A stretch of 64,000 nucleotides of DNA from an uncultured Gammaproteobacteria bacterium (lineage in GTDB: Bacteria; Patescibacteriota; Microgenomatia; Daviesbacterales; UBA10151), in the NCBI GenBank assembly GCA_964504985.1, contig CAZDFU010000001.1:21752-85751 (forward strand), written 5' to 3'. The translations under genes and the position numbers were made by a program. This document shows, in pieces, positions 11,688 to 59,028 of the stretch (its first letter is position 1; each line of letters begins with the position of its first letter). The notes below the pieces were generated by a model. That model was not told the DNA's origin and did not search any database. It was given only the letters and a program-made list of their open reading frames with translations.

Positions 11688-11723
11688 AACTCTGAACTCT
11701 GAACTAATAACTAATAACTAATT
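11688..11723. repeat. AACTCTGAACTAATAACTAATAACTAATT repeat element, copy a
   Basis: Tandem CTGAACT and TAATAAC sub-repeats immediately 5' of the lgt ATG; 28-nt identity to copy c. Confidence 0.6.
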
Positions 11724-12638
11724 ATGTTTCCTGTGCTATTTTCAATAAATAAGATATCTGTTTCCTCCTTTGGAGTATTTTTAGCCCTGGGGCTTATTTT
11801 TGGACTTTTTTTAATTTGGCGCTTAAGCAGGGCCTGGGAGTTGGACGAAGAGAAGATTTTAGATTTAACACTGATTGCTTTCCTGGGAGGATTATTAGGC
11901 TCAAGGATTTACTTTGTGATAGAAAAATTGCAATATTTTATTCAAAATCCACAATATATTTTGCTTTTTAACCAAACCCCAGGATTTTCATTTTGGGGGG
12001 CTTTTATAGGCGGTTGGTTAACGCTTTACTATTTTGCCAGGAAGAAAAAGATAGATTTTTGGCAGGCAGGGGATATTGCAGTGGTAGGGCTTTTAGGAGG
12101 CTTAATTTTTTCCTCCTTAGGCTGTTTTTTAGGAGGTTGTAATATAGGCATACAAAGCAACTGGTTTTTTGCAACCTCTGTGGCAGGCAGTTTGGGAAAA
12201 AGATTCCCCGTTCAAGCGCTGGAAGCTGTCTTGTTTTTTCTAGCGTTTTTAAACCTTTGGGGTAAAAGCACCCGCTTTCATCACCGGGGCAAAATATTAA
12301 GTTTAGGCTTAATTTATATTGGAATAATTAAACTCCTGACTGAACCGTTTAGAGCATCCTATGATGAAGATCTATTTTTATCATTTATCCTGATAATTTT
12401 AGGGATAAATATTTTATATAGGGTAACAAACAGAAAGTTAACAAATGATTTAAGGGAATTTTTTATTTTTGTGCGTAAATTATTTACTGACTCCTTGACC
12501 AGGAAGCAGACTTTAGCTAAACTTAGGAAAAGTTGGTATAATCGCAGAACGTCAATTTCCTGGAATGTGCGGAGTTTAAAGAAAAAATTAGGGAGGATAA
12601 ATGTTGGAATTTCCTACAAAAACAATAAATTACATTAA
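11724..12638 (+). CDS. lgt: prolipoprotein diacylglyceryl transferase
   Basis: Multi-TM protein with Lgt-like N-terminus (FGVFLALGLIFGLFLIWRL...GGLLGSRIYFVIE) and conserved YF/GxRxG-type segments; unusual Lys/Arg-rich C-terminal tail. Confidence 0.6.
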   Translation: MFPVLFSINKISVSSFGVFLALGLIFGLFLIWRLSRAWELDEEKILDLTLIAFLGGLLGSRIYFVIEKLQYFIQNPQYILLFNQTPGFSFWGAFIGGWLTLYYFARKKKIDFWQAGDIAVVGLLGGLIFSSLGCFLGGCNIGIQSNWFFATSVAGSLGKRFPVQALEAVLFFLAFLNLWGKSTRFHHRGKILSLGLIYIGIIKLLTEPFRASYDEDLFLSFILIILGINILYRVTNRKLTNDLREFFIFVRKLFTDSLTRKQTLAKLRKSWYNRRTSISWNVRSLKKKLGRINVGISYKNNKLH

Positions 12639-12960
12639 GAAATTATTGCTTAACCAGCAAAAAGTGGTTGAGAAAAACCTGAAAGGGGTTGAGGAAGATG
12701 ATCCTGCAAAAAGTGATGGTCTGGCTGAAAGCTCAGAACCAGGTACAGACTCATACATTGCAGATACCCATACCAAAGCTATAGTTTTGGAAGCCCAACT
12801 TAAAAGAACCAATAGTTCCATAAAAGAAGCTCTTATGAAAATAAAAAATGGCACTTACGGTAAGTGTGAAAAGTGCGGCCAGGGGATTGAACTGGGAAGG
12901 CTTCTAGCCATGCCAACAGCTTCCCTTTGTTTATCTTGCTCAAATAAAACTACAAAATAA
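12601..12960 (+). CDS. DksA/TraR-family C4 zinc-finger protein
   Basis: C-terminal CEKCGQGIELGRLLAMPTASLCLSC zinc finger characteristic of DksA/TraR; overlaps the lgt 3' end by 38 nt. Confidence 0.6.
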   Translation: MLEFPTKTINYIKKLLLNQQKVVEKNLKGVEEDDPAKSDGLAESSEPGTDSYIADTHTKAIVLEAQLKRTNSSIKEALMKIKNGTYGKCEKCGQGIELGRLLAMPTASLCLSCSNKTTK

Positions 12961-13013
12961 ACCAAAACTGCTATCTTTACAATTATATTTACTTCAAGTT
13001 ATTATGCCAACAT

Positions 13014-14057
13014 ATGGTGACCAAAGCAAAAGAGAGATATAACCCTGATCATGACCTTAGTTTTATACGGAGAACTAATGATACAAGGGGAGGTATAGTC
13101 CTTCCAGCTGATGGTAATCTGGAGGCAGTTTATCCTTGGGGGGCTAATGGAGCGATGGCAGAGGCAGAAAGAAGAAGATTAAGTTTACAGGCAGGAATAA
13201 GTTGGGCTAGAGATTATGAAGAATGGCATGAAGACGTCCTAAAATCTGGGTATGCTCCACACAGAATGGCTTTGGTTGGTGTTTCACCAGGAGCAGAGCA
13301 GCTTCAGTTTGTATTAAGAAAGTATCCGCAAGCTGAAGTTGTAGTTATTGAGGTAGACCCTAAAAAAGTTGAAGGAGCCAAAGCTACAATCAGCCGTACA
13401 AACAGGCAGGCTGCTAAACGAGGCAGGATTTCTTTTGTAATTGCAAATGCTATTGAATATCTTGCGGATCAGCCAAATAAATTTGATTTTGTGGAAGCTG
13501 ACAAGGTGGCAATACATTTACCAAGTCAACCGAGAGGGCAGCTTTATCAAACAGCAGGAACGGCTTTGGAAAGAGGTGGTGTATTTCATCTGAGTGATGT
13601 GCTTGCTAAAACTTGGAGCGTCCGTGCTGCACCTGGATCTGAAAAAAATCCACCCACTACGGCAGCAATAGAAGTTTTAACGGAAAAACTTATGCCGGCT
13701 ATTCTGCATGCTTCTTGGACAAACCGGGGAGCACGGTTATGGGATAATGCAGAAGATATGGCTTCAGAAGTATTATCTTTTGTCCCCAGTCTATGGCGGG
13801 GAAGGCTTAGGATATGTAAGGCGCCATTTACCGGAGTAGATGATCCGGAAGGGATGATTTCTAACTTAATTGCTATTTCACCTAGTCTAGGTATTGAAGC
13901 AAAGAGAAGACAGCAGCCTGATAATGAGGAATTGGCAAAGATTGCAGATATAATGTGGAGTGTATCAAGGCAGTTTTTTGAGGCAGCTCATACGCCAGGC
14001 GTACTGATTGGTTTACCAGACTATACCCATATAAATTTTGTAAAACTTGCTGCTTAA
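13014..14057 (+). CDS. hypothetical protein with class I methyltransferase-like Rossmann segment; atypical (higher) GC
   Basis: LVGVSPGAEQLQFV...VVVIEVDPKKV...FDFVEAD resembles MTase motifs I and post-I; by eye its GC is about 10 points above neighbouring genes. Confidence 0.4.
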   Translation: MVTKAKERYNPDHDLSFIRRTNDTRGGIVLPADGNLEAVYPWGANGAMAEAERRRLSLQAGISWARDYEEWHEDVLKSGYAPHRMALVGVSPGAEQLQFVLRKYPQAEVVVIEVDPKKVEGAKATISRTNRQAAKRGRISFVIANAIEYLADQPNKFDFVEADKVAIHLPSQPRGQLYQTAGTALERGGVFHLSDVLAKTWSVRAAPGSEKNPPTTAAIEVLTEKLMPAILHASWTNRGARLWDNAEDMASEVLSFVPSLWRGRLRICKAPFTGVDDPEGMISNLIAISPSLGIEAKRRQQPDNEELAKIADIMWSVSRQFFEAAHTPGVLIGLPDYTHINFVKLAA

Positions 14058-14123
14058 CTTGTAATGTTTTTGAATCCTTTTCCTCTTTGACAAAGTTTGG
14101 ATTTCTTGTAATTATGAAGTTAG

Positions 14124-16361
14124 ATGATAAACATCATATCTAACTCTTTGATTATTTTTAGTGCACTTGCTAATTTTTTAATTGGATTGGTAGTTTTAAA
14201 TAATAATATTAAGGGTAAGGTAAACATAGCCTTTTCTGTAATTTGTTTTATGCTTTCAATCTGGGGGATCTTTTTATTCCTTTACGGAGTTCCATTTTTT
14301 TTAAGTTCTTTTTTTTGGATTAAAGCTGCTTATGCCTTAGTTACTATTCAAATATCTTTTATATTAGGTTTTTCATTCATTTTCCCAAAACCAATATTTA
14401 AGAATTGGCGTTTGCCAGCTATTCTTTTTAGTTTATTTTTTATAGGAATATCTTACTGGTGGCTTTTTTTTACCAATGATTGGATAATAAATGTAACTTT
14501 AGATCCCCAGAAAGGACTCCACGTAGCTTTAGGAGACATTTATAAGGTTTGGTCAGTTTTAGTTTGGATAGCTTTTGGGTGGGCCCTTTTTAATTTCATT
14601 AGAAACAGCAAGAAGTGTGCTTTAAGGGAGAGGATTCAACTACAATATCTTTTTTTTGGATTTGGATTGTGGGGGGTATTTGTTAGTATTCCTGATATAA
14701 TCTTACCAATATTTTTTGCAGAGACACGTTTTTTTCCTCTAAGTGTTGTTACCAGTTTGTTTTTCTCAATAGCTGTTTCATATGCCATTATTAAGCATCA
14801 TTTTATGGATATACGTATGGTTGTGGCTAGAACAGTTGCCTATACGTTATTGTTAGCTATAATAGGTATTTTTTATGTAGTATCTTTTTACTCTCTTAGT
14901 TATTTATTTTTAGGTACTGTAAGCTCAGGCACTCAGGTAATATTGAATGTTGGACTTGCGCTAGTAGTTGCTTTTACTTTTGATAGATTAAAGGTCTTTT
15001 TAGAAAAACTTACTGATAAAATTTTCTATCAGGGGCATTATGACACTCAATCTTTGCTTTCATCTGTAAGTACTATTTTAAGTACGAATATTGATTTAAC
15101 TTCTTTAGTTAATCAAATTCTTGGCCTTTTAATTAAGCAAATAAAGGTTAGTAAAGGAGCTTTAGTATTACCTTCAGATTCATCAATATATGAAACAATT
15201 TCAGTTGGATTTGATGGAAATTTAAACTTAACTTATCAACATATTTCTCCTTTTTTATCTCAAGGAGAAACAATAGTTTTTGATGAATTAGAAGAAGGGG
15301 ATATTAAACAATTAATGCGTTTGTTAAATGCATCTATAGTTAGATTACTCAAAATAGAAAATAAAGTAATTGGACTTTTGATTTTAGGGGAAAAATCATC
15401 AGGAGATGTTTATTCCCAACAAGATTTAAAAATACTAAATATTATTTCACCTGAGATGGCGGTGGCTGTACAAAACTCTTTATCTTATGAAAAGATTAAA
15501 AAGTTTAATGAGGTTTTATCTGAGGAAGTTAAAAATGCCACTTTAGATTTACAAAGGGCAAATGAAAGATTAAAAAATCTGGATAGATTAAAAGATGATT
15601 TTGTATCCATTGCTTCACATGAATTAAGGACTCCAATGACAGCCATCCGCTCCTATGCCTGGATGGCTTTGAACCGCTCAGATGTAAAATTATCTGAAAA
15701 ACTTCAGAAATATTTAGTAAGAGTACTGATTTCTGCAGAAAGGTTAATTAATTTAGTTAATGACCTTCTTAATATCTCCAGAATTGAGGCAGGAAGAATA
15801 GAAATAAGTCCTGAGCCAGTTGATCTTATATCACTTTGTAAAGATATTACTGATGAAGTTTATTTCTCAAAATCAACTGAAAAAGACATTAAGTTTGAAT
15901 TATCTGATAAGTATCCTGTTCCCAGGGCTTTTGCTGACCCAGAAAAATTAAGACAGGTTCTTTTAAACCTGGTAGGAAATTCTTTAAAATTTACACCAAA
16001 TGGCGGGAAAATTGGCTTTAGATTTTTTAGTGACGGTAAAACAGTGGAGATTTCGGTTTCAGATACAGGGGTAGGGATATCCAAAGAAGATATGAGCAAA
16101 TTATTCCAAAAATTCTCCAGGTTAGATAGTTCATATACAGCAGCAGCTACTTCTGGAGGAACAGGCTTAGGTTTATTTATCTCCAAAAGTTTGGTAAATC
16201 TTATGCATGGAAAAATTTGGGCAACCTCTGAAGGCTTGGGAAAAGGAGCTGCCTTTACTATTTCTTTGCCAGTTGCTACACAAGAAGTATTGCAGAATGC
16301 AGATGAATTTAAAATAAAATCCCAGGGAGAAGCTAAGGGGTTGGAACCTGTTGCAATTTAG
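14124..16361 (+). CDS. sensor histidine kinase (multi-TM N-terminus, GAF-like domain, HisKA, HATPase_c)
   Basis: About 7 N-terminal TM helices, H-box SHELRTPMTAI, N/G-boxes LNLVGNSLKF...DTGVGI...GTGLGL. Confidence 0.8.
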   Translation: MINIISNSLIIFSALANFLIGLVVLNNNIKGKVNIAFSVICFMLSIWGIFLFLYGVPFFLSSFFWIKAAYALVTIQISFILGFSFIFPKPIFKNWRLPAILFSLFFIGISYWWLFFTNDWIINVTLDPQKGLHVALGDIYKVWSVLVWIAFGWALFNFIRNSKKCALRERIQLQYLFFGFGLWGVFVSIPDIILPIFFAETRFFPLSVVTSLFFSIAVSYAIIKHHFMDIRMVVARTVAYTLLLAIIGIFYVVSFYSLSYLFLGTVSSGTQVILNVGLALVVAFTFDRLKVFLEKLTDKIFYQGHYDTQSLLSSVSTILSTNIDLTSLVNQILGLLIKQIKVSKGALVLPSDSSIYETISVGFDGNLNLTYQHISPFLSQGETIVFDELEEGDIKQLMRLLNASIVRLLKIENKVIGLLILGEKSSGDVYSQQDLKILNIISPEMAVAVQNSLSYEKIKKFNEVLSEEVKNATLDLQRANERLKNLDRLKDDFVSIASHELRTPMTAIRSYAWMALNRSDVKLSEKLQKYLVRVLISAERLINLVNDLLNISRIEAGRIEISPEPVDLISLCKDITDEVYFSKSTEKDIKFELSDKYPVPRAFADPEKLRQVLLNLVGNSLKFTPNGGKIGFRFFSDGKTVEISVSDTGVGISKEDMSKLFQKFSRLDSSYTAAATSGGTGLGLFISKSLVNLMHGKIWATSEGLGKGAAFTISLPVATQEVLQNADEFKIKSQGEAKGLEPVAI

Positions 16362-16401
16362 GACTCTTGACTCTGAAGCCTTATCACTATAAGGTAATCA
16401 T

Positions 16402-16791
16402 ATGGACAACCAAAGCAAAAAAATACTTGTTGTTGAGGATGATCAATTTTTAAGGGAGTTTTATCAGGAACTTTTGGAAGGGGAAGGATATACGGTGGAT
16501 ACTGCAATGGATGGAGAAACGGCAGCCAATAAAATTAACCAGGGGGGTTATAATCTGGTTCTTTTGGATATTATGCTGCCCAAAAAAGACGGAACCCAAA
16601 TTTTAAGGGAAACAACGATGCGTCCCCCGAAAAATGCCAACGGCCCCATAGTTTGTTTGACTAATTTAGGCCAGGATTCAGTAATAAAAGAGTGTTTTGA
16701 ACTGGGAGCTGCAGGATATTTAATTAAATCAGCCTTGAACCCTGACCAGGTTTTAACAGAAATAAAAAGCTATTTAACAAAATCCTCATAA
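16402..16791 (+). CDS. single-domain response regulator (CheY-like receiver)
   Basis: KILVVEDDQFLRE...LVLLDIMLPKKDG receiver motifs; no output domain. Confidence 0.8.
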   Translation: MDNQSKKILVVEDDQFLREFYQELLEGEGYTVDTAMDGETAANKINQGGYNLVLLDIMLPKKDGTQILRETTMRPPKNANGPIVCLTNLGQDSVIKECFELGAAGYLIKSALNPDQVLTEIKSYLTKSS

Positions 16792-17589
16792 ATGGCTGAT
16801 ATTAAGGTAATCTACCAGGATCAGGATTTATTAGTGGTGGATAAGCCTGCAGGTTTGGTGGTTGACGCCTCTGAAACACAAAAAGATCATGTTTTAGCAG
16901 ATATCCTGCAAAAGGAGTTTAAAATAACTCTTGAAAGAGGGGGGATAGTCCACAGACTGGATAAAGATACATCTGGTGTTTTGCTGGTTGCTAAAAACCA
17001 GCAAGCCCTGGAGCATTTGCAGGCTCAATTTAAAGAAAGAAAAACAAAGAAAGAATATTTGGCTTTGGTTCATGGGTTGGTGGAAAAGGGTGGAGTAATA
17101 GATGCTGCAATTTTAAGAAATCCTGAGAATAGAGAAAAATTCATAGCTATTTCCGATCAATCCACCTCGAAGGTGAGCTTTGGCTCCTTCGAGGTGTCTT
17201 CTGCCAGGGAAGCTGTGACAGAATATGAGCCAATAAAGTCATTAGTTATGGGTCCAGAGTTCATAGAAAAGATCTTTGAGGGTTTTAACAAGATTCAGTT
17301 ACGCAAACTACGAACTATGAACTACCAACTCTACACTCTTTTGGCCGTAAGGCCAAAAACTGGACGGACGCATCAAATTAGGGTACATTTAAAACACATA
17401 GGGTATCCTATTGTTTGTGATGAAAAGTATGGAGGCAGGAAAGTGGTAAGGCTGGATAAAAGATGGTGTCCCAGGATGTTTTTGCATGCCAAGAAGATTG
17501 GATTCTATCATCCAAAGTCCGGGGAGTGGATAGAGATGGAAAGCGGGTTGGCAGAAGATTTGAGGGAGGCACTAAGTAAATTAACCTAA
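16792..17589 (+). CDS. RluA-family pseudouridine synthase
   Basis: LLVVDKPAGLVV...HRLDKDTSGVLLVAK catalytic Asp motif; carries an internal hairpin-encoded insert (see findings). Confidence 0.75.
   Translation: MADIKVIYQDQDLLVVDKPAGLVVDASETQKDHVLADILQKEFKITLERGGIVHRLDKDTSGVLLVAKNQQALEHLQAQFKERKTKKEYLALVHGLVEKGGVIDAAILRNPENREKFIAISDQSTSKVSFGSFEVSSAREAVTEYEPIKSLVMGPEFIEKIFEGFNKIQLRKLRTMNYQLYTLLAVRPKTGRTHQIRVHLKHIGYPIVCDEKYGGRKVVRLDKRWCPRMFLHAKKIGFYHPKSGEWIEMESGLAEDLREALSKLT
17162..17196. repeat. TCGA-centred hairpin pair inside the rluA-like CDS
   Basis: CCACCTCGAAGGTG...CTCCTTCGAGGTG: two mutually inverted CACC-TCGAA-GGTG mini-hairpins encoding STSKVSFGSFEV. Confidence 0.6.
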
Positions 17590-17594
17590 TTTAT

Positions 17595-19301
17595 ATGGAT
17601 AATATTTTCATACAACTTGCCATAATTTTGGGTATCTCTTCTTTGCTTGGGTACTTAGTAGTTAAATTTAAGCTGCCCCTTTTAATTGCTTATTTGGTAG
17701 GAGGTTTATTAATTGCTTCAACCTCTGTTTTTGATCCCACAACTTCAGAAGTATTGCATTTTTTACCAGAGATTGGCATTGCTTTTGTATTATTCCTGAT
17801 TGGCATGGAGCTTGATTTAAGGGAGATAAAAAATTTGGGGATCCCGATAATTATAGCAGGATTTTTGCAAATTATTATTACCACGCTTTGTGGTTTTATA
17901 CTGGCTCAGGCCTTTAATTTTGGCATTGCAGAATCAATTTATCTGGGAGTAGGATTATCTTTTTCCTCAACAATTGTGGTAATTAAATTACTTTTGGAGA
18001 AGAAAAACATAACTTCTTTATATGGCAAGCTGTCAATTGGGATACTTCTTTTAGAGGACTTACTGGCAGTTTTAATTTTGCTTGGACTGACAGTTTCTCC
18101 GTCTATGTTTCATCTGGGATTACAACAAACCCTGCCTCTTTTTACCTTTGTTTTAAAAGTTTTCCTGCTTTTTGGAGTGGCTTTAATCTTAAACAGATTC
18201 GCTTTACCAATTATATTCCGCTCAGTTTCTAAATCTTCTGAACTGTTGTTTTTAACAGCCCTGTCATTTTTATTTATTTTTGTTTCTTTTGCCTTGCTTT
18301 TAGGTTTTTCTGTAGTAATTGGGGCATTTTTGGCAGGGGTTGCCCTGGCTTCTTCTCCTTATCATTATCATATCCAGGGCAGGGTTAAACCTTTAAGAGA
18401 CTTTTTTGTGGCTTTGTTTTTTGTTTACCTGGGGACTCAGGCAAACTTTAACGAATTAGGTTCAGTTTATCCTTTGGTAATTATTTTTACCCTCTATGCC
18501 TTAATTGTTAAACCTTTAATTTTCCTTTTGGTTTTGGGAGGGTTTGGTTTTAGAAAGCATACCATGTTTCAAACAGCAGTTAATTTATCTCAAATTTCAG
18601 AATTCTCATTAATAATTTTACTTGTTGGACTGCAGTCTGGTTTGGTTTCATCCCAGGCTTTGACAATAATCACTTTGTCTTTGATAACCTCCATGCTTTT
18701 TTCATCAGTAATGGTTACTCACTCAAATGCTATTTATAAAATTTTAAAACATTTTGTGGCATTTTTTGAAAGAAAAAATATTAAGCATAATTTGGAAATA
18801 GATGATGGCCGTGATTTAAAAAATCATGTGGTGGTTATTGGTGGTCATAGAGTAGGGGGAGAGATAGTTGAGTTTTTAAAAAAAGAGGAAATACCTTTGA
18901 TAGTATTGGATTTTGACCCCAGCCAGGTTGAAAAATTAGTTAAAGAAGGGGTGAAGGTCATTTATGGAGATATATCTGATCCGGAGGTTTTAGAGATGCT
19001 TCAATTGGAATTTTCCAAAATGATCATTTCCACATCTTCTGATGTAGAAGACAATAAGGTGCTTTTGGAAGAGTTAAGGCAAAGGAAGATTGATGCTCCA
19101 GTTGTTGTCAGGGCCTCTACTTTAGAAGATGCTAAGGTTTTATATAAAAAAGGTGCCAGTTATGTGATTATCCCCACGCTTTTGGCAGGTGAATACCTGG
19201 TGGAGAAGTTAAAGAATCATTTAACTGATAAGGAATACTTTGTAAAGAGACCTAAGATTGAGCTTGAGAAACTCCACAGAAAAACTCTGGCCTGGGAATA
19301 A
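17595..19301 (+). CDS. monovalent cation:proton antiporter (CPA2/Kef-type) with C-terminal RCK/TrkA-N domain
   Basis: 12-13 TM helices followed by VVVIGGHRVGGEIVEFL Rossmann-type NAD-binding motif. Confidence 0.75.
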   Translation: MDNIFIQLAIILGISSLLGYLVVKFKLPLLIAYLVGGLLIASTSVFDPTTSEVLHFLPEIGIAFVLFLIGMELDLREIKNLGIPIIIAGFLQIIITTLCGFILAQAFNFGIAESIYLGVGLSFSSTIVVIKLLLEKKNITSLYGKLSIGILLLEDLLAVLILLGLTVSPSMFHLGLQQTLPLFTFVLKVFLLFGVALILNRFALPIIFRSVSKSSELLFLTALSFLFIFVSFALLLGFSVVIGAFLAGVALASSPYHYHIQGRVKPLRDFFVALFFVYLGTQANFNELGSVYPLVIIFTLYALIVKPLIFLLVLGGFGFRKHTMFQTAVNLSQISEFSLIILLVGLQSGLVSSQALTIITLSLITSMLFSSVMVTHSNAIYKILKHFVAFFERKNIKHNLEIDDGRDLKNHVVVIGGHRVGGEIVEFLKKEEIPLIVLDFDPSQVEKLVKEGVKVIYGDISDPEVLEMLQLEFSKMIISTSSDVEDNKVLLEELRQRKIDAPVVVRASTLEDAKVLYKKGASYVIIPTLLAGEYLVEKLKNHLTDKEYFVKRPKIELEKLHRKTLAWE

Positions 19302-19312
19302 TTTTTATCTGA

Positions 19313-23252: not shown

Positions 23253-23374
23253 CTAAGGGAAAAAGTATAGAAGAGAAAGAAAGGGTTGTCAATGGTTTCG
23301 CATAATATTTGCCTGGTTTAATTTGTTTCAGTTGTTAAAATAACCAATGCTGTCTTGAAAGTACATTCTAAACC

Positions 23375-23388
23375 CTATACACTATACT
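23375..23388 (+). promoter_or_regulatory. CTATACACTATACT motif upstream of yebC (candidate promoter for a leaderless mRNA)
   Basis: TATACT ends 8 nt before the ATG; no SD sequence. Confidence 0.35.
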
Positions 23389-23395
23389 GATTCTC

Positions 23396-44250: not shown

Positions 44251-47536
<3,286 letters not shown>

Positions 47537-49274: not shown

Positions 49275-49277
49275 ATT

Positions 49278-50330: not shown

Positions 50331-50452
50331 CAATTAGCAATTAGAGACTAGCAAATAGCAATTAGTTATTTACAACTATTCTCTAATCACTAAAGTATGG
50401 CTGAATTTATCTATGAGCAAGCTCTAGATAAAAGAGATTATTAATATTATGT

Positions 50453-51733: not shown

Positions 51734-52327
51734 TTGAAAAAATCTGCTCAGGTCCAATTAAAACGGACTTACGGTTTCACGCTGGTGGAACTTTTGGTAG
51801 TTATCGCAATTATTGCCATTCTGGCAGCAGTTGTTGTTTTGATCATAAACCCCCTGGAATTAACAAGAAGAGGTAGGGATGCAGCCAGACTTTCTGATCT
51901 TGCAAATCTGCAAAATGCCATTAATGTAGCTGTACAAGAAGCAACAAATTCTGGGGCTGCAATTCTTTGTAATGGGGCAGCTTATCCTTGTGGCGGGAGC
52001 GGTACAGGCGCAGGAAGAAGCGGTGGAGCAGGTGCAGGAACAAGAGTGGTTGATGGAACAGGGTGGGTAAAAGTTAACCTGGGATCTTCACAAAGTGTTT
52101 CAGTGCCAACATTGCCTGTTGATCCAACCAACAATGAGACCTATCATTACACCTATTGTGCAGACAATGATGCTTGGGAAATTAACGCGGTTTTGGAATC
52201 AGAACAACAGAGGACTAAGATGGCCAATGATGGTGGAAATGAAAACGCAACTGATACAACCGGCCGTTATGAAGTAGGATCCAATTTGGGATTAATTGCT
52301 CTTTCGGGTGGGAGTTGTACTTACTAA
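51734..52327 (+). CDS. type IV prepilin (major pilin candidate)
   Basis: Leader ...QLKRTYG|FTLVELLVVIAIIAILAAVVV class III signal. TTG start 8 nt after AAGGGGG is preferred over the GTG at 51725 that overlaps the RBS; Gly-rich surface region. Confidence 0.65.
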   Translation: MKKSAQVQLKRTYGFTLVELLVVIAIIAILAAVVVLIINPLELTRRGRDAARLSDLANLQNAINVAVQEATNSGAAILCNGAAYPCGGSGTGAGRSGGAGAGTRVVDGTGWVKVNLGSSQSVSVPTLPVDPTNNETYHYTYCADNDAWEINAVLESEQQRTKMANDGGNENATDTTGRYEVGSNLGLIALSGGSCTY

Positions 52328-52399
52328 TAGCTATCAGATATCTGTCATCAGTCGTCAGATTGTTGCAATTAAAAGTCTGAAAGCTGAAGACTGAAAGCT

Positions 52400-53287
52400 A
52401 TGATTGTAATAGGATTTATTTTAGGTGCGATACTTGGCAGTTTTGTTAAAGCGTTGGCAGACCGCAGTTTAGCGGATAAGTCCTTTAGGGGAAGGTCGTA
52501 TTGCCCGGAGTGTAAACATACTCTGAGGTGGTATGACCTTCTGCCTATAATTTCATATTTAATTCTTTTAGGCAAATGCAGATACTGCAGGGAGAAAATA
52601 CCTATAGAGTATTTGCTGATGGAAGTGGCGATGGGGATATTGATAGGGTTTTTGTTTTTGTTAGAAATCCCAAACCCCTTTCCCCTTAACCCTTTCCCCT
52701 TAACCCTTTTGTTAGCTGATCTTTTGTTTAAAACATTCTTTATTACAATTTTAGCTGTACTTTTTTTAACAGATATAAAAAAGATGTTTATACCGGACAG
52801 GGTTGTAATCCCTGCAATTTGGATTAGTATTATGTTTATAACTGTTATAACTATTATAAAAATTATATTTCTTTACTATTCCCTGACACTAACTCCTATA
52901 GGAAGGAACTTACTCCCCCCCCATACTGACTATTTTCAAAGGCATGCTTTGATTACTGCTGAACCGCTGATTGGATCAATCCTAATGGGGCTTTTAATCG
53001 GGGGATTTTTTATGGCTTTAATTATTATAACCCGCGGTAAAGGTATGGGAGGAGGAGATGTAAAACTTGGGGCATTAATGGGGCTTAGCTTGGGGTTTCC
53101 AAATTCTTTAGTTGCTTTAATCTCAGCTTTTTTATCCGGTGCTATTTTTTCTTTAGTGCTTATTTTGGCAGGCAAAAAACATTTTGGGCAATCTATTGCT
53201 TTTGGCCCATTTTTAGTGACGGGAAGCCTGATTGCTTTATTTTGGGGCCAGCAAATTCTTGAATGGTATTTAAATTTATCAACTTGA
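52400..53287 (+). CDS. pilD: prepilin peptidase (A24 family) PilD
   Basis: Zinc tetracysteine CPECKH...CRYC and 8 TM helices with catalytic Asp region; contains an in-frame NPFPL x2 duplication. Confidence 0.8.
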   Translation: MIVIGFILGAILGSFVKALADRSLADKSFRGRSYCPECKHTLRWYDLLPIISYLILLGKCRYCREKIPIEYLLMEVAMGILIGFLFLLEIPNPFPLNPFPLTLLLADLLFKTFFITILAVLFLTDIKKMFIPDRVVIPAIWISIMFITVITIIKIIFLYYSLTLTPIGRNLLPPHTDYFQRHALITAEPLIGSILMGLLIGGFFMALIIITRGKGMGGGDVKLGALMGLSLGFPNSLVALISAFLSGAIFSLVLILAGKKHFGQSIAFGPFLVTGSLIALFWGQQILEWYLNLST

Positions 53288-53399
53288 AACAACTATGTTT
53301 CTCATTGATTAATACCCTCTGGAGTATCTGCAAAACAGTTACAGCATAGCTTTAAAAATGTATAAACGCGTTGATGCAATTTATCTCCACGCGTAGGGA

Positions 53400-54233
53400 C
53401 TATTTATCTAAAAGTCCTACGCCTTTGGCGTTTAATTTGGTTACTACTTTTTTCCCGGTTCTTCTTTCTAATGTCTTTCTTGCCAAACCGGCAATTGAGC
53501 CACCATCTTTGGCTACTTTTTTATTCTCTGCAAAGTTTTTTGGTTCGACCTTTTTTGAGATTTCTGTAGTGGAAGCTTCTGCCAACATATTGAGAACCAG
53601 TTCCAAATTGGTCATATTATCCCGTAAGTTTTCTTTCTTTAGTCCTTTTAGTTTTTTGTAGTCTTTTGTTCTCATTCCTGCCCAGGCAAAAGTGATTTCA
53701 TCAGTAAGGGTGGCAAATTGGCTGTTTTCTCTAACACCTCTTTGCTCCCATTCATCGGTTAGTTCTTTTCTAATCTCAATGCTTTTTAATCTTTGATTAA
53801 TCCAGTTTTGGGAATACCCACGCTTGAGATAAAAGTGCATTGCCCGCTGGATAGCTTTTTCTGGATCTTCTGATTCTTCAACCCGTTCGTAACCCACTCT
53901 GGCTAACCATAATTTAAATGGTTCGGCATTTGGAGACGGAATTGACTGGATAATCCGAAATACAGTCTCTGTATCAGCTACATCAGTCAATCTTAACTTA
54001 CCATCAGCTGCAAGCATTTTCAACCGGTGACATTTTGTCACCACTTCACTTCCTTCCTTTCGAAGTCTTTCTGCTAACTTATTCCAATATTTACGGGCTT
54101 TAATAAAATTAGCTTGATTCGATAATACTTGGACTACATCGACTACTGAGAAATACCATTTTTCTTTACTTTTATCCCAATGTCTGCGGATTTTTTTACC
54201 CTCAAAAACTGCGAGCTTAGTAGTTTTTACCAC
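53400..54233 (-). CDS. dinD: DinD-like DNA-damage-inducible protein with Bro-N domain
   Basis: N-terminal FEGKKIRRHWDKSKEKWYFSVVDVVQVL (Bro-N). C-terminal KKLKGLKKENLRDNMTNLELVLNMLAEASTTE parallels E. coli DinD RKGLKKNQKILDHMGSTELAANLFRATQTEE. Opposite strand to the surrounding pilus genes. Confidence 0.6.
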   Translation of the reverse strand: MVKTTKLAVFEGKKIRRHWDKSKEKWYFSVVDVVQVLSNQANFIKARKYWNKLAERLRKEGSEVVTKCHRLKMLAADGKLRLTDVADTETVFRIIQSIPSPNAEPFKLWLARVGYERVEESEDPEKAIQRAMHFYLKRGYSQNWINQRLKSIEIRKELTDEWEQRGVRENSQFATLTDEITFAWAGMRTKDYKKLKGLKKENLRDNMTNLELVLNMLAEASTTEISKKVEPKNFAENKKVAKDGGSIAGLARKTLERRTGKKVVTKLNAKGVGLLDK

Positions 54234-54348
54234 AAAGCTATTGTAGCAGATTTTTTTGTGTAAATTTTACCTGTTATTTACTAATAATCCCCTTTTTTCA
54301 TACTTGTTTCTTGACAATTCAGAAGATTTATTACACTATGATATTAAG

Positions 54349-54888
54349 GTGAAAAAATCTGCCCTGAGTGAACGGAGTAAATCAAAGGGTTTTACTTTAG
54401 TTGAATTACTTGTTGTTATTACGATTCTTGCTATTTTGATGACAATTGGCATTGCTGTTTATTCCGGTGTACAAAAAAATGCCAGGGATGTAAGAAGAAA
54501 AACCGATCTGCGTTCTATTAAAGTGGCTTTAGAGCTATACTACCAAACTAATGGTAAATATCCAAATAGAGATTGGGTTTATTCCACCACCGCACAACCC
54601 TGGATCCCGGAACTCACCTCTGATTATATGAGTCAAGGTGTGCCAACAGATCCTTTTAACAGCGGAAATGGAGGTCCATGGACTGGAACTACTAATTACA
54701 GGTATGCTTATTGGGCATTAGCTTGTGGTGGATTCCCTGCAGGCCAGTTTTATGTGCTGGTTGCACAGCTTGAAAATAAGACTGATGGAGATAATCTTGC
54801 GCACAAAAATAATAAATGGTGCGATGGTAATGGACTTTATTCTAGTAGTGGTTGGAGTGGTTCTGCTTATGTTATCACGAGTCTTTAA
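54349..54888 (+). CDS. type IV prepilin/pseudopilin paralog
   Basis: VKKSALSERSKSKG|FTLVELLVVITILAILMTIGIAVY; GTG start shortly after a TTGACA-containing promoter-like sequence; the ORF-track ATG start gives an implausibly long leader. Confidence 0.55.
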   Translation: MKKSALSERSKSKGFTLVELLVVITILAILMTIGIAVYSGVQKNARDVRRKTDLRSIKVALELYYQTNGKYPNRDWVYSTTAQPWIPELTSDYMSQGVPTDPFNSGNGGPWTGTTNYRYAYWALACGGFPAGQFYVLVAQLENKTDGDNLAHKNNKWCDGNGLYSSSGWSGSAYVITSL

Positions 54889-54890
54889 TG

Positions 54891-55394
54891 GAAAAGCTGA
54901 CAGCTTACTATAAACATTGGATTTCCTTAAAGGATAAAAAAAACGGTTTCACCTTAGTTGAGATATTGGTGGTGATTTCCATAATTGCAGTTTTGGCAGC
55001 TATCGGGCTTTCTATTTACCAGCCTGTTGTAAAACGCTCCAGGGATTCTAAAAGAATATCTGATTTAAAATTAATCCAATCCTCTTTAGAGGATTATCAT
55101 GCAGACCAGCTGTATTATCCAGCAATTGGCACAGGTTTTTGTCCTGCTGAATCTGATGGCAGATTCAGGGTTGGTTGTCCATTAACCAGCCCTGATAGGA
55201 CAAAAAAATATCTAAACCTTGTGCCTAAAGATCCTCTGGGGACAACAGAATATTTTTATATGCCAAGCGGTTGTTCTTCAAACGAATGCAGGAGTTATTG
55301 TTTGTTTGCCAATATGGAAGGTACTGCTCCTGTTTCTGAGCCTGGATGCAGATTCCCCAGTGATTTATATGATTTTGGCGTGAGCAGGCCGTAA
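54891..55394 (+). CDS. type IV prepilin paralog
   Basis: MEKLTAYYKHWISLKDKKNG|FTLVEILVVISIIAVLAAIGLSIY. Confidence 0.55.
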   Translation, partial: EKLTAYYKHWISLKDKKNGFTLVEILVVISIIAVLAAIGLSIYQPVVKRSRDSKRISDLKLIQSSLEDYHADQLYYPAIGTGFCPAESDGRFRVGCPLTSPDRTKKYLNLVPKDPLGTTEYFYMPSGCSSNECRSYCLFANMEGTAPVSEPGCRFPSDLYDFGVSRP

Positions 55395-55454
55395 AGCTAA
55401 CGGGACAAGAAAGCCCACCTGGAAGGTGTAGTGCTGATATGTTACTGTTATAGT

Positions 55455-55967
55455 ATGCCTGTTTCCAGAACTGGATATACTCTTATTGAGCTTTTAGTAG
55501 TAATATCCATACTTTCAGTAATGGCTGTGGTGGGGTTTATTAATTTTAACTTTTTTGCCAGTACTCAGATAATATCTAAGGCTGCAGGACAAATTCAAAC
55601 GCTTTTGAGGCTGGCTCAAAGTAATGCCACCTCATCCACGCTTTGTAATAACCAGGGGGCAACATCCTGGTCATTAAGGTTTGTAAATACTTCAACAATT
55701 GAACTCCGCTGCAATGGCGCTTCTGATACTTTGCAAAAAACCTATAATTTGGAAAATGCCAGAGTACAGATTCAGTGTTCAGGCATTGAATATGCTGTTT
55801 TAAGACTTCCTGCTGCTTTTACTTATTCAAGCGGGGCGGGTACGCTTACTACTGCTTGCCCCTCATCTTCCCAAACAATTATTTTTACTATTACCAATAG
55901 TTTAAATCCTAATACTGCCCCAAAAACTTTTAAGTTATCCAGAGGAGGAGCTATAGATGTACAGTGA
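55455..55967 (+). CDS. minor pilin-like protein
   Basis: MPVSRTG|YTLIELLVVISILSVMAVVG. Confidence 0.5.
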   Translation: MPVSRTGYTLIELLVVISILSVMAVVGFINFNFFASTQIISKAAGQIQTLLRLAQSNATSSTLCNNQGATSWSLRFVNTSTIELRCNGASDTLQKTYNLENARVQIQCSGIEYAVLRLPAAFTYSSGAGTLTTACPSSSQTIIFTITNSLNPNTAPKTFKLSRGGAIDVQ

Positions 55968-56463
55968 AAAAGGACAAACTTTGATGGAGCTTGTGGTAGT
56001 AGTTGGGGTTTCTGCAATTGTGGTTGGGGCATTGGTTTTTGCTACCATAGCCTCTCTTAGGAATGCCCAATTTTCCAAAAACCAAGCTCAGGCTACTAAG
56101 TTAGCCCAGGAAGGAATTGAGAGGGTTAGGGCAGGCAGGGATAGGAATAAAGCTATTTCCAATTTCACGACAGGGTCTGGGAATGCAGTAGCTAATTGGC
56201 AGGATGATGATTTGTGGGTTAACCTAGATAAAAACTACTATTTTAATGTTGCAGCAGATGGGGTTTTGACTTATTTGGTTCCTCAGCCTGCCCAGACAGG
56301 AATTGCTGCTTCAGGTGAGTCCATAGGGTCTTTTTACCGGATAGTGATTTTATCTGATGATGCAGCTTTTTCAGTCCAAAAAACTGTGACAGTGCAAGTT
56401 TCCTGGACTGATTTTTCTGGACCGCATCAATCAAAATTAACAACAATATTAAGAAAACTATGA
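55957..56463 (+). CDS. minor pilin-like protein
   Basis: MYSEKGQ|TLMELVVVVGVSAIVVGALVF. Confidence 0.45.
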   Translation: MYSEKGQTLMELVVVVGVSAIVVGALVFATIASLRNAQFSKNQAQATKLAQEGIERVRAGRDRNKAISNFTTGSGNAVANWQDDDLWVNLDKNYYFNVAADGVLTYLVPQPAQTGIAASGESIGSFYRIVILSDDAAFSVQKTVTVQVSWTDFSGPHQSKLTTILRKL

Positions 56464-57119
56464 ACCGGACTAATAACTCTGAACTAATAACTAAGAACTT
56501 ATTAGGTTTTACTTTGGTGGAGATTCTGGTAGTAATGGCAGTACTTTCTATCTTTGGGACGCTTGTGGTAACTATTTTTAGCCGTACTTTAACAGGCAGT
56601 AATAAATCGCAGCTGATTGGTGTGATAAAGCAAAACGGACAGGCTGTTTTGGATAAAATAGATAAAACTGCCAGGAATGCTGATTATGTTTGTGTAAGCA
56701 CTGATAATAAAACCCTGGTAACAGTTAAAGATGGTATTAATACCCGCTACAGGTTTATCCCTTCTGCCCCGCTTTCTAATCCTACTTCTTCTGGTTTGAT
56801 TCAACAGGACAATCCTACAAGCAATCAAGGAGAGACTACCCCGGATTTTATGGATAGAGTATGCGGGAATACGAGTGATATGATAAACCCTGTTGTATTA
56901 ACTGATACCAACGCTCAAACAGGGGTTTCTGTTGATTGTGTTGCTGTAAATGGCGCCCCCGATTGCGGAGCTAACCCTGTATTTTATAGAGAAAGTTCAG
57001 AAGGGTTTATGGATCAGGTGACTATTAAGTTTGATCTGCGCCCGGGGGTGCGTATACCTGATGCAGTATCAAGCCAGGTTGGTTCAATAACATTTCAGAC
57101 AACAATACAACTAAGATGA
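56460..57119 (+). CDS. type IV prepilin paralog
   Basis: MNRTNNSELITKNLLG|FTLVEILVVMAVLSIFG; the leader peptide is encoded by a copy of the AACTCTGAACTAATAACTAA repeat. Confidence 0.55.
   Translation: MNRTNNSELITKNLLGFTLVEILVVMAVLSIFGTLVVTIFSRTLTGSNKSQLIGVIKQNGQAVLDKIDKTARNADYVCVSTDNKTLVTVKDGINTRYRFIPSAPLSNPTSSGLIQQDNPTSNQGETTPDFMDRVCGNTSDMINPVVLTDTNAQTGVSVDCVAVNGAPDCGANPVFYRESSEGFMDQVTIKFDLRPGVRIPDAVSSQVGSITFQTTIQLR
56470..56497. repeat. AACTCTGAACTAATAACTAA repeat element, copy b (coding, pilin leader)
   Basis: ACTAATAACTCTGAACTAATAACTAAGAAC. Confidence 0.55.
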
Positions 57120-58027
57120 ACGAAAAAGGCCAGGTAGTACTGCTTTTAATTCTGGTGATGACTGTGGCTTTGGCTATTGGATTATCAATTGTCCAAAAAA
57201 GCCTGGTGGATGTTTCTACATCCTCTAAGGTGGAACAATCCTCCAGGGCTTTTTCAGCAGCTGAGGCAGGCATTGAGAAAGCCCTGCAAGGAAGCAGTGA
57301 GCCTGTTAACTTTTCTGACAGCGGTTCAAGTATTAAAGAGATTACAGGTACAGAAGAATTGCCTTGTGTGCCAGGACAGGCTGGATGTATCCAAACAGCG
57401 GGACGGCAAGTTGCGCTGGAATATCCTCCTTTGGCTAAAGAGGATGCGGTTCAGGTATGGCTGGCAAGCCCTAAGGCCAGTTTACCTAATTGTGCTGGTT
57501 TTATTTGTTACACTCAACCCACTCTTGATATCTATTGGGGGAATTCTCAGCAAGACAAAGCAGCTTTGGAATTAACTCTTGTTTACTTTGGAAAGGACCC
57601 TCAGGATCCGGTCCCTGCTGAAAGAAACAGGGATAAATATAGAAGTTATAAGTGGTACCTAGATAACCTTTCTGTTAGCCGGAATAATGGGTTTGAGAAG
57701 GTAAATTGTCAGGACAGGCAGATTGGGACAACTATCTATACCTGCAATAAAAGGCTGGATTTTGCACCGGTTTATCAAAAAGACGCTGCCAATAAGTTAA
57801 TGCTTATTAGGGCCAGGTTACTTTATAATAACACCTCTCAACCTTTTGCTGCGCAGGCAACAGGGACTTGCGGGGCAGCTTGTTCACTCCCCCCTCAGGC
57901 CAGATCAATTACTTCCACCGGCGTTTCAGGGGAGACTCAGCGGAAAGTCAGGCTATTTCAGCAATATAATGTAGTTCCTCCTTATTTTGATTATGCTATC
58001 TTTTCTGCAGCAGCTATAACGAAATAG
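57116..58027 (+). CDS. PilX-like minor pilin
   Basis: MNEKGQVVLLLILVMTVALAIGLSIV N-terminus typical of PilX. Confidence 0.45.
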   Translation: MNEKGQVVLLLILVMTVALAIGLSIVQKSLVDVSTSSKVEQSSRAFSAAEAGIEKALQGSSEPVNFSDSGSSIKEITGTEELPCVPGQAGCIQTAGRQVALEYPPLAKEDAVQVWLASPKASLPNCAGFICYTQPTLDIYWGNSQQDKAALELTLVYFGKDPQDPVPAERNRDKYRSYKWYLDNLSVSRNNGFEKVNCQDRQIGTTIYTCNKRLDFAPVYQKDAANKLMLIRARLLYNNTSQPFAAQATGTCGAACSLPPQARSITSTGVSGETQRKVRLFQQYNVVPPYFDYAIFSAAAITK

Positions 58028-58029
58028 TT

Positions 58030-58446
58030 ATGAAGGATAACCAAAAAGGCGTGTCTTTAATTGAATCTTTAATGGTGGTGGTGTTGGTGGGTGTGATGGT
58101 GTTTTTAATGGCAAATTTACCAAATGCCATGAATTTAATAACTAAAAGTAAAAATATGAGTTTAGCCAGGGAAATTGCTGCCAAAGAAATAGAAGATAAA
58201 AGAAATACCGCATATGCTAATTTAGCAGCAGATGATTCACTTATTGAAGACCCAAGGATTAGTTTGCTTCCTCAGGGTTCGGGAAAAGTTAAAGTGGAGT
58301 TTTGTGACCCTATAACTTTCCCCCAATTTTGTCCAAATGATGAGCAAATAAAGATTGTGACGGTTTTTATTTCCTGGAGAGAAAATAATAAAGATCAGAA
58401 AGTTGATATAAAAACCTTTATCGGGGAAGGAGGGCTCAATCAATGA
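58030..58446 (+). CDS. minor pilin (PilV-like)
   Basis: MKDNQKGVSLIESLMVVVLVGVM. Confidence 0.45.
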   Translation: MKDNQKGVSLIESLMVVVLVGVMVFLMANLPNAMNLITKSKNMSLAREIAAKEIEDKRNTAYANLAADDSLIEDPRISLLPQGSGKVKVEFCDPITFPQFCPNDEQIKIVTVFISWRENNKDQKVDIKTFIGEGGLNQ

Positions 58447-59000
58447 AATGGAAATCTAAAAGGGGTTTAACGCTTGTGGAAGTCTTAATTGCTATGGGGA
58501 TAGCGGTTGTGGTGGCAGGGCTGCTTTTGGTAATCATGCTTAATAGCGCAGGGCTTTATTATAAACAGTCTTCAAAGCTTCAGGGAGGGTTAAATAGCAA
58601 CGATGCGCTTTTTAAGATCAGACAGTCTGTTAAGGAAGCAGGCAGTATCAGCCCGTTATCTTCTTCAGAGCAGCTTATTTTAAAGATTTCCTCAATTGAT
58701 TCATCAGGCGGTATTATTGCCAATGCTTATGATGATTTTATTTTTTTGAAAGATCAGAAAAACCTGCGTTTTAGGATTATTCCGGCAGCAGGAGTAAGTT
58801 CCAGGTTTTCCCAGGATCAAATTTTTTCAACAAATGTGGAAAGTGTAACTTTTCAATATTTTAACTTGGCAAATCCCCCTTTGGAGGTAAGTCCTGAGCT
58901 TGCCAGCAAAGTCAGGGTTAGTTTAACTTTAAAGCAAAAATCAGGTGCAGATTATGAGGCAATTATTGCAACATCTGAGGCAAGTTTAAGAAATGACTGA
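58443..59000 (+). CDS. minor pilin (PilW-like)
   Basis: MKWKSKRG|LTLVEVLIAMGIAVVVAGLLLV. Confidence 0.5.
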   Translation: MKWKSKRGLTLVEVLIAMGIAVVVAGLLLVIMLNSAGLYYKQSSKLQGGLNSNDALFKIRQSVKEAGSISPLSSSEQLILKISSIDSSGGIIANAYDDFIFLKDQKNLRFRIIPAAGVSSRFSQDQIFSTNVESVTFQYFNLANPPLEVSPELASKVRVSLTLKQKSGADYEAIIATSEASLRND

Positions 59001-59028
59001 ATTAGTTATTAGTTATTAGTTCAGAGTT
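59001..59028. repeat. AACTCTGAACTAATAACTAATAACTAATT repeat element, copy c (reverse orientation)
   Basis: ATTAGTTATTAGTTATTAGTTCAGAGTT, the reverse complement of copy a, lying between two pilus genes. Confidence 0.6.

Follow-up and report, generated by a model that had tools for sequence, protein, structure and literature searches.

Why should one short sequence recur, letter for letter, beside genes that have little in common? The question is raised by a 64-kb stretch of contig CAZDFU010000001.1, referred to here as the window; all within-genome counts below refer to these 64 kb of the source genome. The closest named homologues of three of its products, namely Lgt, a 615-amino-acid (aa) protein and a RluA-family protein, all belong to Candidatus Daviesbacteria, of the Microgenomates group in the Candidate Phyla Radiation (CPR). 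The element in question stands directly before lgt, within the leader of a minor pilin-like gene, and between two genes of the pilus cluster. An earlier note had taken it for either a regulatory site common to envelope and pilus genes or a third small repeat family. The second proposal turned out to be essentially right, as the copies make up a single sequence family among the 7-nucleotide (nt) tandem repeats that pervade the genome. The probability is roughly 70% that they represent one family of heptamer arrays (units AACTCTG and AACTAAT) whose insertion at the three gene starts is recent, as opposed to a dedicated control site kept by conservation.

The recurrence described in that note is real, and the sequence concerned, AACTCTGAACTAATAACTAATAACTAATT, is 29 rather than 28 letters long. 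Exact matches are found at 11695–11723 on the forward strand (copy a) and at 59000–59028 on the reverse strand (copy c), and a third copy with two mismatches is found at 56475–56503 on the forward strand (copy b). No match to the 29-mer was obtained in 100 dinucleotide-preserving shuffles of the window. The placements first given for the copies also stand. The last base of copy a is 11723, and the first base of the lgt ATG is 11724. Copy c is the exact reverse complement of copy a (29/29), lies 47 kb away in opposite orientation, and separates two pilus-cluster genes. Copy b is translated within a prepilin leader, in open reading frame (ORF) 56460–57119, directly before FTLVEIL. The features of the three sites are as follows.

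11602–11630, forward strand: candidate lgt promoter TTGATT-17-TACTCT, read by eye from the orthologue comparison and hence putative
11639–11673, forward strand: degenerate reverse-type units (AGTTTGT GGTTAGT AGTTATT) and a 14-nt spacer, just 5′ of the forward array
11674–11723, forward strand: forward heptamer array of seven units containing copy a (AACTCCT AGCTCCT AACTCTG AACTCTG AACTAAT AACTAAT AACTAAT T, then ATG)
11724–12638, forward strand: lgt, prolipoprotein diacylglyceryl transferase (Pfam LGT, 1.8e-34)
56460–57119, forward strand: minor pilin-like gene with copy b in its leader (N_methyl motif, 1.3e-05)
56469–56503, forward strand: copy b array (ACTAATA ACTCTGA ACTAATA ACTAAGA ACTTATT), coding part of a 16-aa prepilin leader
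58443–59000: pilin-like gene upstream of copy c (N_methyl motif)
58993–58995, forward strand: what is left of the 615-aa gene's ancestral start codon (an ATGA overlapping the stop of the gene upstream), from orthologue comparison
59000–59041, reverse strand: copy c, a reverse-oriented array (minus strand AACTCAT AACTCAT AACTCTG AACTAAT AACTAAT AACTAAT T) filling the 35-nt gap between the pilin-like and 615-aa genes
59036–60883, forward strand: 615-aa protein, conserved and encoded in the pilus cluster; the name "choice-of-anchor R domain-containing" is given to some homologues
59059–59069, forward strand: short forward-type remnant AACTAATAACC, coding TNN within the N-terminus newly gained by the 615-aa protein

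The 29-mer is no discrete site, but a chain of heptamers (AACTCTG, AACTAAT) within longer period-7 arrays. Using Tandem Repeats Finder (TRF) and a lag-7 scan, seven head-to-tail units were found in array a and six in array c, where three or more copies already qualify as a tandem repeat, and the pattern AACTNNN repeated three times has ten matches at four loci of the window vs 0.01 expected. The tandem units first noticed inside the element are these heptamers themselves; the role of iterated binding sites that had been proposed for them found no support. Between sites a and c, similarity extends past the 29-mer to 58 nt at 78%. No target-site duplication flanks copy a, b or c, and no conserved non-repeat core is present at these sites, which have only the repeat units in common. 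Of the units themselves, (AACTAAT)3 carries TAA at offsets 3, 6, 10, 13 and 17, so that all three frames are stopped, and its complement carries TAG in every one of the three frames.

The three sites in related genomes

Comparison was made across 203 kb of Daviesbacteria DNA, consisting of the window and eight related loci of 68–74% nucleotide identity. The orthologues of the lgt locus (L005/L006/L007, L008 and L255) keep the order of M1 peptidase, EF-P, NTP-transferase, a divergent 147-aa gene, lgt and dksA, and those of the pilus cluster (L249, L250, L251 and L253) keep synteny across its entire length. Judged from these alignments, all three copies are lineage-specific insertions, the one at site c being common, in diverged form, to a single relative (L249).

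At lgt, the orthologous spacers are 53–72 nt long and have no array. For instance, L005 and L008 show a conserved TTGTCAATTTGATTCAA block, then ~17 nt, then a −10-like hexamer ~7 nt from the lgt ATG. The TTGTCAATTTGATTCAA block is still there in the window, but ~85 nt of heptamer-rich sequence now lies between it and the ATG. The alignment thereby establishes copy a as a lineage-specific insertion, through which lgt gained a leader ~85 nt long that lacks a Shine–Dalgarno (SD) sequence. The TTGATTCAA block of the candidate lgt promoter is kept in the orthologues, and the candidate scores below threshold in a consensus promoter scan. The fold of the lgt leader RNA is not significant (z score, −0.76). 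Another insertion, of 52 nt, is seen at 11550–11601, where it interrupts a block (TTGTCAAT joined to TTGATTCAA) that is unbroken in all orthologous lgt spacers. It forms a hairpin (TGATCCT...AGGATCA), has a TCAAT direct repeat on both flanks, and occurs a single time in the window.

Copy b is read as the leader MNRTNNSELITKNLLG followed by FTLVEIL, and no other in-frame ATG, GTG or TTG lies 5′ of the GFTLVE motif in ORF 56460–57119. Orthologous pilins have leaders of 5–7 aa (MSKNA before FTLVE, MKKGG before FTLAE and MKYSNSG before FTIAE) vs 16 aa in the window, where the roughly ten additional codons are the array. One of the two differences between copies b and a replaces TAA with TTA and removes an in-frame stop, and it is because of this substitution that the pilin ORF stays open. 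Set beside its orthologues, copy b is thus established as a lineage-specific insertion that lengthened the minor-pilin leader by ~10 codons. Other leader regions of related pilins are also rearranged: the orthologous minor pilin of L250 (7391–7480) has a doubled cleavage motif, MKNRGFTLVRSAKVNTLGFTLVEIL, and the annotated leader of another L249 pilin contains (AACTCAA)3 and (AACTTTT)4.

Site c shows a gene start replaced. In three of the four orthologues (L250, L251 and L253), the ATG of the ~600-aa gene overlaps the upstream stop by 8 nt, in the form AGAAATGA(T/C)TAA. Read on the forward strand, copy c carries TAG in all three frames, and in the window the frame opened by the ATG at 58993 is now closed by an array TAG eight codons on. 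Today the gene starts at 59036, with an ATG that belongs to an array unit, ATGAGTT, and the N-terminus is new (MSKYKNKKTNNQNGQIL vs MIKLNQSGQIL). From the orthologue comparison it emerges clearly that the array, once inserted, destroyed the overlapping start of the 615-aa gene and donated a replacement ATG; the junction is now a 35-nt spacer with all three frames stopped. The corresponding junction of L249 is occupied by a reverse array and a forward array with a spacer between them, which together form a hairpin of 16 bp (−26.6 kcal/mol; z, −5.0). The L249 gene starts within the forward array, and its product opens with MNYELITHNQKGQIL; a full forward array stands where the window keeps the TNN remnant.

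Across these loci, arrays have pushed promoters away from starts, broken overlapping junctions, donated start codons and lengthened cleaved leaders. Direct comparative evidence for such array-driven remodeling of start codons and leader peptides is among the most notable by-products of the analysis, and start codons and N-termini annotated beside such arrays in CPR genomes are to be regarded as unreliable.

Three near-identical copies beside gene starts, made of iterated units that could in principle be half-sites, might also suggest an operator at which a DNA-binding transcription factor co-regulates lgt and the pilus genes. The positions of the copies speak against this, with copy a lying 3′ of the putative lgt promoter, copy b inside an ORF of an operon, and copy c between translationally linked genes. 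In addition, the arrays are absent at orthologous loci, whereas a candidate promoter is kept there, and the same sequence is found 5′ of rpsG, tRNA-Ser and tmRNA in other organisms. The spacer of the major pilin gene serves as a control, for its candidate promoter (TTGACT ... TATGAATACAAT) and a strong GGAGG-type SD are kept in all four genomes; regulatory sequence is therefore recognizable at this divergence, and the arrays are not conserved. An operator is accordingly extremely improbable. None of the three copies being conserved at orthologous Daviesbacteria positions, the proposed regulatory site of envelope and pilus genes fails the conservation check that the earlier note had set for it, and a false lead, that of a regulon site, is removed.

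Copies b and c form an inverted pair, 35 nt long and 91% complementary, that flanks exactly four pilin-like genes (56460–59000). A phase-variation switch for the minor pilins could be built on such a pair, either through units of 7 or 14 nt that are gained or lost and so frameshift the pilin or by b/c recombination that inverts the four-gene cassette. The 7-nt unit in the ORF is not a multiple of 3, and surface structures are classic targets of phase variation. Slippage should nevertheless be rare at copy b, since it has no identical adjacent units, and lgt, the site of copy a, is no variable surface gene. The window ORFs scanned beside the repeats included neither a recombinase nor an invertase, a tblastn search with Y1 transposases found nothing in the window, and arrays of other families are identical in both of the near-identical locus pairs available. 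Taken together, these observations make a switch very improbable.

The copies also have the potential to pair, a with c in trans. Predicted duplex energies are −57 kcal/mol for a:c and −41 kcal/mol for b:c; random windows average −14.5 and go no lower than −30. A bolder and distinctly improbable reading is that Daviesbacteria, and perhaps the CPR more widely, have a dedicated repeat generator of 7-nt register that rebuilds gene boundaries, and that duplexes of a and b with c in the mRNA of the pilus operon couple lipoprotein maturation and minor-pilin expression by way of RNase III-type processing. If that were true, the generator would continually create new start codons, leader peptides and protein loops.

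Period-7 arrays at other sites

Period-7 arrays pervade this Daviesbacteria genome and its relatives. In the 203 kb, 24 arrays have period 7, vs 0–5 at each other period from 4 to 12, and shuffles yield ~0.1. About half of the arrays fall in the 6.9% of the DNA left intergenic by a crude ORF call, and many end within ~20 nt of a start codon. The tetramer AACT was considered as a special conserved core (7 of the 24 arrays; p = 0.002), yet it is no more enriched than other AT-rich tetramers and was rejected. With these genomes, the question of why a 7-nt register is favored can be put in concrete form. Arrays of the window beyond the three sites are listed here.

10129–10195, forward strand: inverted CTATACA-type array pair between EF-P and the NTP-transferase gene (hairpin −21 kcal/mol; z, −3.2)
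17241–17266, reverse strand: diverged copy of the family (7 mismatches to the 29-mer) in the RluA-family pseudouridine synthase ORF, read LVMGPEFIE
17306–17339, forward strand: AACTACG AACTATG AACTACC AACTCTA in the RluA-family ORF, coding KLRTMNYQLYT, conserved at the protein level
23368–23395, forward strand: second copy of the array type found at 10129–10195 (CTATACACTATACT-type), directly 5′ of a YebC/TACO1-family gene
50331–50365, forward strand: CAATTAG array directly after the pilT stop, in the 122-nt spacer before pilC
52344–52399, forward strand: inverted arrays TCATCAG TCGTCAG ... AGTCTGA AAGCTGA AGACTGA AAGCT, ending at the pilD ATG (z, −2.15)
60893–60935, forward strand: AACTTGT TACTTGT ... 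TACAAGT TACCTGT AAAATGT heptamers 5′ of pilM
4206–4242, 8293–8337, 17241–17339 and 52675–52709: arrays within ORFs (17241–17339 covering the two RluA-family entries above)

Two of these neighborhoods had been linked to the element through supposedly related motifs. The one before pilD is indeed a heptamer array, at 52374–52399, although of different units (AGTCTGA AAGCTGA AGACTGA AAGCT) and accompanied by an inverted TCATCAG TCGTCAG arm. The other, before the response-regulator gene, consists of only two units (GGACTCT TGACTCT) that are loosely related, and the link was not sustained. Spacers orthologous to those holding the pilus arrays are short, at 1–14 nt before pilD and 0–22 nt between pilT and pilC.

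At several fixed sites, the unit differs from one relative to the next. For example, the sequence 5′ of pilM is of AACTTGT/TACTTGT type in the window, of CATTTGA type in L249, (ACAGTTT)4 in L250 and (CAATTGA)4 in L251. The spacer between EF-P and the NTP-transferase gene holds an inverted CTATACA-type pair in the window and an inverted TGATTAA-type pair in L005, and it is 4 nt long in L255. Arrays of this kind also sit in frame in the loops of conserved proteins, the unit again turning over at a fixed site; perfect arrays in such positions are the second notable by-product of the analysis. A loop of 7–9 residues in the RluA-family protein is coded by AGTT-type units in the window (LVMGPEFIE), by a perfect (AATTTAC)4 in L254 (8204–8246; NLQFTIYNLQ), and by a perfect (AATTTTC)4 in L255 (10394–10435; NFQFSIFNFQ). 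A single base difference common to all copies of this array indicates homogenization within arrays. The loop between the two Pfam domains of PilD is likewise coded by CCCCTTT/CCCCTTA units in the window (52675–52709) and by (TCAATTA)3 in L249 (3621–3656). The PilD loop of L250 has a different, palindromic insert coding ARSEATWQS. A larger, recent insert flanked by arrays had been suspected in the RluA-family protein from an excess of length over the Pfam model; it was rejected, as all Daviesbacteria homologues have kept this stretch, and it shows no large gap relative to E. coli RluC. The array-encoded, variable part is confined to the loop of 7–9 residues.

The arrays would arise and become homogenized with 7 nt as their register, replication slippage or unequal exchange being the most likely routes, and would occasionally be copied from locus to locus. 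Copying between loci would explain the 29/29 identity of copies a and c. The places in which arrays are found are those where extra sequence is tolerated, namely short intergenic spacers up to the start codon, cleaved prepilin leaders and variable protein loops. Any regulatory role would then be a secondary by-product, with translation uncoupling, an unstructured landing site for ribosomes and complementarity between copies as candidates.

Identical 29-mers at distant loci, together with the 58-nt similarity of sites a and c at 78%, may also bring to mind a short mobile element whose arms are heptamer arrays and whose targets are gene junctions and, in frame, ORFs. Such an element could resemble a miniature inverted-repeat transposable element (MITE), a repetitive extragenic palindromic (REP) sequence or a REP doublet forming a hairpin (REPIN), and a reverse array, spacer and forward array do recur at the lgt leader, at site c of L249, in the EF-P spacer, 5′ of pilD and in the metagenomic contig L180. 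Against this, the sites have no conserved non-repeat core, no defined termini and no target-site duplication, and the differing units at orthologous sites fit turnover in situ better than repeated insertion. The Y1 transposases of related loci, which have unrelated GC-rich palindromes on their flanks, are absent from the window. A mobile element therefore appears improbable. REP and REPIN sequences are short extragenic repeats, GC-rich imperfect palindromes tied to a RAYT (Y1) gene; the arrays are like them in often being inverted pairs that form hairpins, and unlike them in that the window has no Y1 gene. Rickettsia palindromic elements (RPEs), which Ogata et al. are said to have described in 2000, are selfish repeats lying in frame in protein genes. 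They are discrete elements of ~100–150 nt with a conserved sequence. In-frame repeat DNA is similarly tolerated here in the loops of the RluA-family protein, PilD and the M1 peptidase and in the prepilin leader, but these sites, unlike RPEs, have only heptamer periodicity in common.

The Y1 genes just mentioned split related pilus clusters. Each encodes a 225-aa transposase of IS200/RAYT-like type (L251, 5742–6419; L253, 3898–4572) and is flanked by TACACACCGGGTGTGT-type palindromes. These enzymes were considered as the agents mobilizing the arrays and were set aside, given that the flanking palindromes are GC-rich and unrelated and that tblastn gave no match in the window. In L249, the pilus cluster is split by an AbiEii gene (5119–5775), and the window has neither AbiEii nor Y1.

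The 20-mer in other organisms and the known heptamer repeats

A scan of a genome collection with the 20-mer AACTCTGAACTAATAACTAA gave four matches, two of which (Pseudoalteromonas and Sumerlaeota) have no surrounding heptamer array. In a metagenome-assembled genome (MAG) of Levyibacteriota, the 20-mer lies between rpsL and rpsG and ends 8 nt 5′ of the rpsG ATG; in a small contig binned as Ignavibacteriae, it lies 3 nt 5′ of an ATG. Metagenomes were scanned with the 20-mer carrying one N position, and ~20 of the 120 matches listed were informative. Among those matches, the 20-mer abuts an ATG in L150 and in L152/L238. An array ends 2 nt 5′ of tRNA-Ser(GGA) in L139 (7616–7638), L197 (9785–9807) and L228. 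The 20-mer ends 4 nt 5′ of a tmRNA with the tag ANTYAYAA in L178 (3373–3397) and L186 (8638–8662), where the assignment was confirmed, and a tmRNA is apparent from the flanking sequence in L214. It also follows terminator-like hairpins in L149/L170 and L220. With C at the N position, the 20-mer stands directly against an ATG in L205/L227, and in L180/L230 it makes up a perfect pair of inverted arrays. L150 and L158/L167, apparently orthologous by the end of the upstream ORF, differ in their units (AACTAAT ×2 vs AACTAAA ×6).

The tRNA and tmRNA contexts mean that arrays abut the 5′ ends of RNA genes as well as start codons, and the presence of the 20-mer 5′ of rpsG, tRNA-Ser and tmRNA shows that it is not tied to envelope or pilus genes. 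The full set of neighbors (lgt, pilins, the RluA-family gene, rpsG, tRNA-Ser and tmRNA) is functionally incoherent. Some of the metagenome contigs with the 20-mer have ~30% GC content and encode V-type ATPase, RecN and GlyS, and by this gene content they are probably not CPR. A viral scan with the 20-mer gave as its sole match a non-array sequence that is also found at the Pseudoalteromonas locus, and a generic viral scan for AACTNNN ×5 found such arrays to be widespread among the matches listed. The rest of the 120 metagenome matches listed belong mostly to a multi-copy gene of Ga01573xx samples (N = T or C) that is unrelated. At least ~80 loci (L129–L248, mostly Ga01573xx samples) carry AACTCTGAACT(T/C)ATAACTAA in a highly multi-copy, conserved and coding-like segment of ~30% GC that comes from a single set of metagenomes and is unrelated to the arrays.

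Heptamer direct repeats with the unit TAACTGA are known from marine Beggiatoaceae, certain Cyanobacteria and a small number of Bacteroidetes (MacGregor 2015, PMC4679880). They are mostly forward, end ~1 nt 5′ of start codons, have stops in three frames and lack an SD; they also occur in ribosomal protein operons and occasionally in ORFs at protein ends, and neither their function nor a transfer mechanism is known (PMC4679880). According to the same paper, Mrazek et al. 2007 found heptanucleotides to be the commonest long simple-sequence repeats of prokaryotes, and an origin by slippage has been proposed. In Nostoc, heptamer repeats adjoin the start codons of recF and recO, with GAC(C/T)AAT ×8 overlapping the recO start, and their role is unresolved (10.1101/2022.06.06.494920).

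The likeness to the Beggiatoaceae repeats is close. Units of 7 nt in tandem, often with related units mixed in, are mostly intergenic and forward, end a few nt 5′ of the start with stops in three frames and no SD between repeat and start, and are occasionally found in ORFs at protein termini and in ribosomal protein operons, in a scattered phylogenetic distribution. The units themselves are not identical. Phased as TAACTAA, the main unit of the window is one base from TAACTGA, and the second unit is TGAACTC. Further differences from the TAACTGA repeats are the CPR host, the presence of many unrelated unit families in one genome, and the reversed orientation of copy c. Inverted, hairpin-forming array pairs are common here, as opposed to a single reported "indirect repeat" in BOGUAY (PMC4679880). 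Here, in addition, recent insertions and unit turnover are shown by the orthologous sites. Long simple-sequence repeats (LSSRs) offer another parallel, in that period 7 is the only strongly enriched period here; being a general category, LSSRs carry no prediction of where an array should lie or what it should do. In cyanobacteria, short tandemly repeated repetitive (STRR) sequences were reportedly described by Mazel et al. in 1990. As with these and other cyanobacterial heptamer repeats, several tandem heptamer families lie near start codons or promoters, and the units and the phylum differ. A full-text search of a limited collection found no paper linking heptamer repeats with Patescibacteria, Microgenomates or Daviesbacteria. 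The element is a new CPR example of a class already known, namely heptanucleotide tandem repeats situated at gene starts, and a phenomenon known from Beggiatoaceae, cyanobacteria and a few Bacteroidetes is thereby extended to the CPR.

Position before start codons is also an argument for a selected, post-transcriptional element, that is, an unstructured, stop-rich, SD-less leader bound by S1, a cold-shock-type protein or another single-strand-binding protein, which would set or co-regulate downstream translation. Forward arrays lie 0–9 nt from the ATG at copy a (1 nt), L004 (8 nt), L002 (3 nt), L150 and L205, the first four with no SD between. Added to this are the stops in three frames and the nearly unfolded initiation regions, with −0.5 kcal/mol just before the lgt ATG and 0.0 kcal/mol around the pilin ATG vs a mean of −5.3; the same position and the same arguments have been put forward for TAACTGA repeats (PMC4679880) and in Nostoc (10.1101/2022.06.06.494920). 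Few initiation regions of the window are less structured than those following copy a and around copy b, the copy b array lying downstream of the pilin ATG, and folds around copies a and b showed no significant structure. On the other side, array position is not conserved among related genomes, and arrays also abut tRNA-Ser and tmRNA genes, where nothing is translated from that point. Copy c is reversed, and other arrays at gene starts have unrelated units, some of them strongly folded. Moreover, most genes here have no SD anyway. An SD-like 4-mer was found at −20 to −4 of ~12 of 59 called starts, in a crude count in which some starts may be miscalled, and by a similarly crude count strong SDs in the window occur mainly at the major pilin gene and at genes internal to operons. 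Where few genes have an SD at fixed distance, an AT-rich, weakly structured array could abut an ATG without loss of expression. Selection for such a role is possible, though unlikely.

Recent insertion of a heptamer family remains the preferred account, and several points weigh against it. Slippage is a presumed origin, and the relatives compared all fall below 75% nucleotide identity to the window (68–74%). Local slippage alone fails to explain why the same 20-mer is present in Levyibacteriota and in organisms that are probably not CPR, or why copies a and c are identical at 29 of 29 positions; either some means of copying or a constraint on sequence that they share has to be at work. The forward orientation right before starts, seen in Beggiatoaceae too, may come from selection for a function at the RNA level. 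Arrays of other families are identical within the near-identical pairs L251/L252 and L005/L006, where hypervariability was not seen. Sampling of the source genome was, finally, limited to the 64 kb of the window.

Other searches and repeats of the window

Among Rfam covariance models run on the window, tRNA-Leu was the sole match. Promoter and terminator scans of the window performed no better than on shuffles, and a plasmid search gave no match.

Differences of other kinds surround the EF-P gene. Between L005 (2357–3024) and L006 (1–521), whose assemblies are 99.9% identical, a deletion of ~150 nt lies within this gene (187 vs 136 aa); it is either an assembly artifact or a real variant within one Daviesbacteria population. 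A separate family of 44-nt repeats, AAAATCCCYAGGTGTCAAGCTAGTCCACCTCCCAGGTGGGA, has copies in the window at 8442–8485, 9476–9519, 47427–47470 and 2217–2260, the best two being 95% identical. One copy lies in frame within the M1 aminopeptidase ORF, in a stretch that differs from the L005 orthologue, and another spans the stop of the M1 aminopeptidase gene and the GTG called as start of the following ORF, which is EF-P by synteny with L005.

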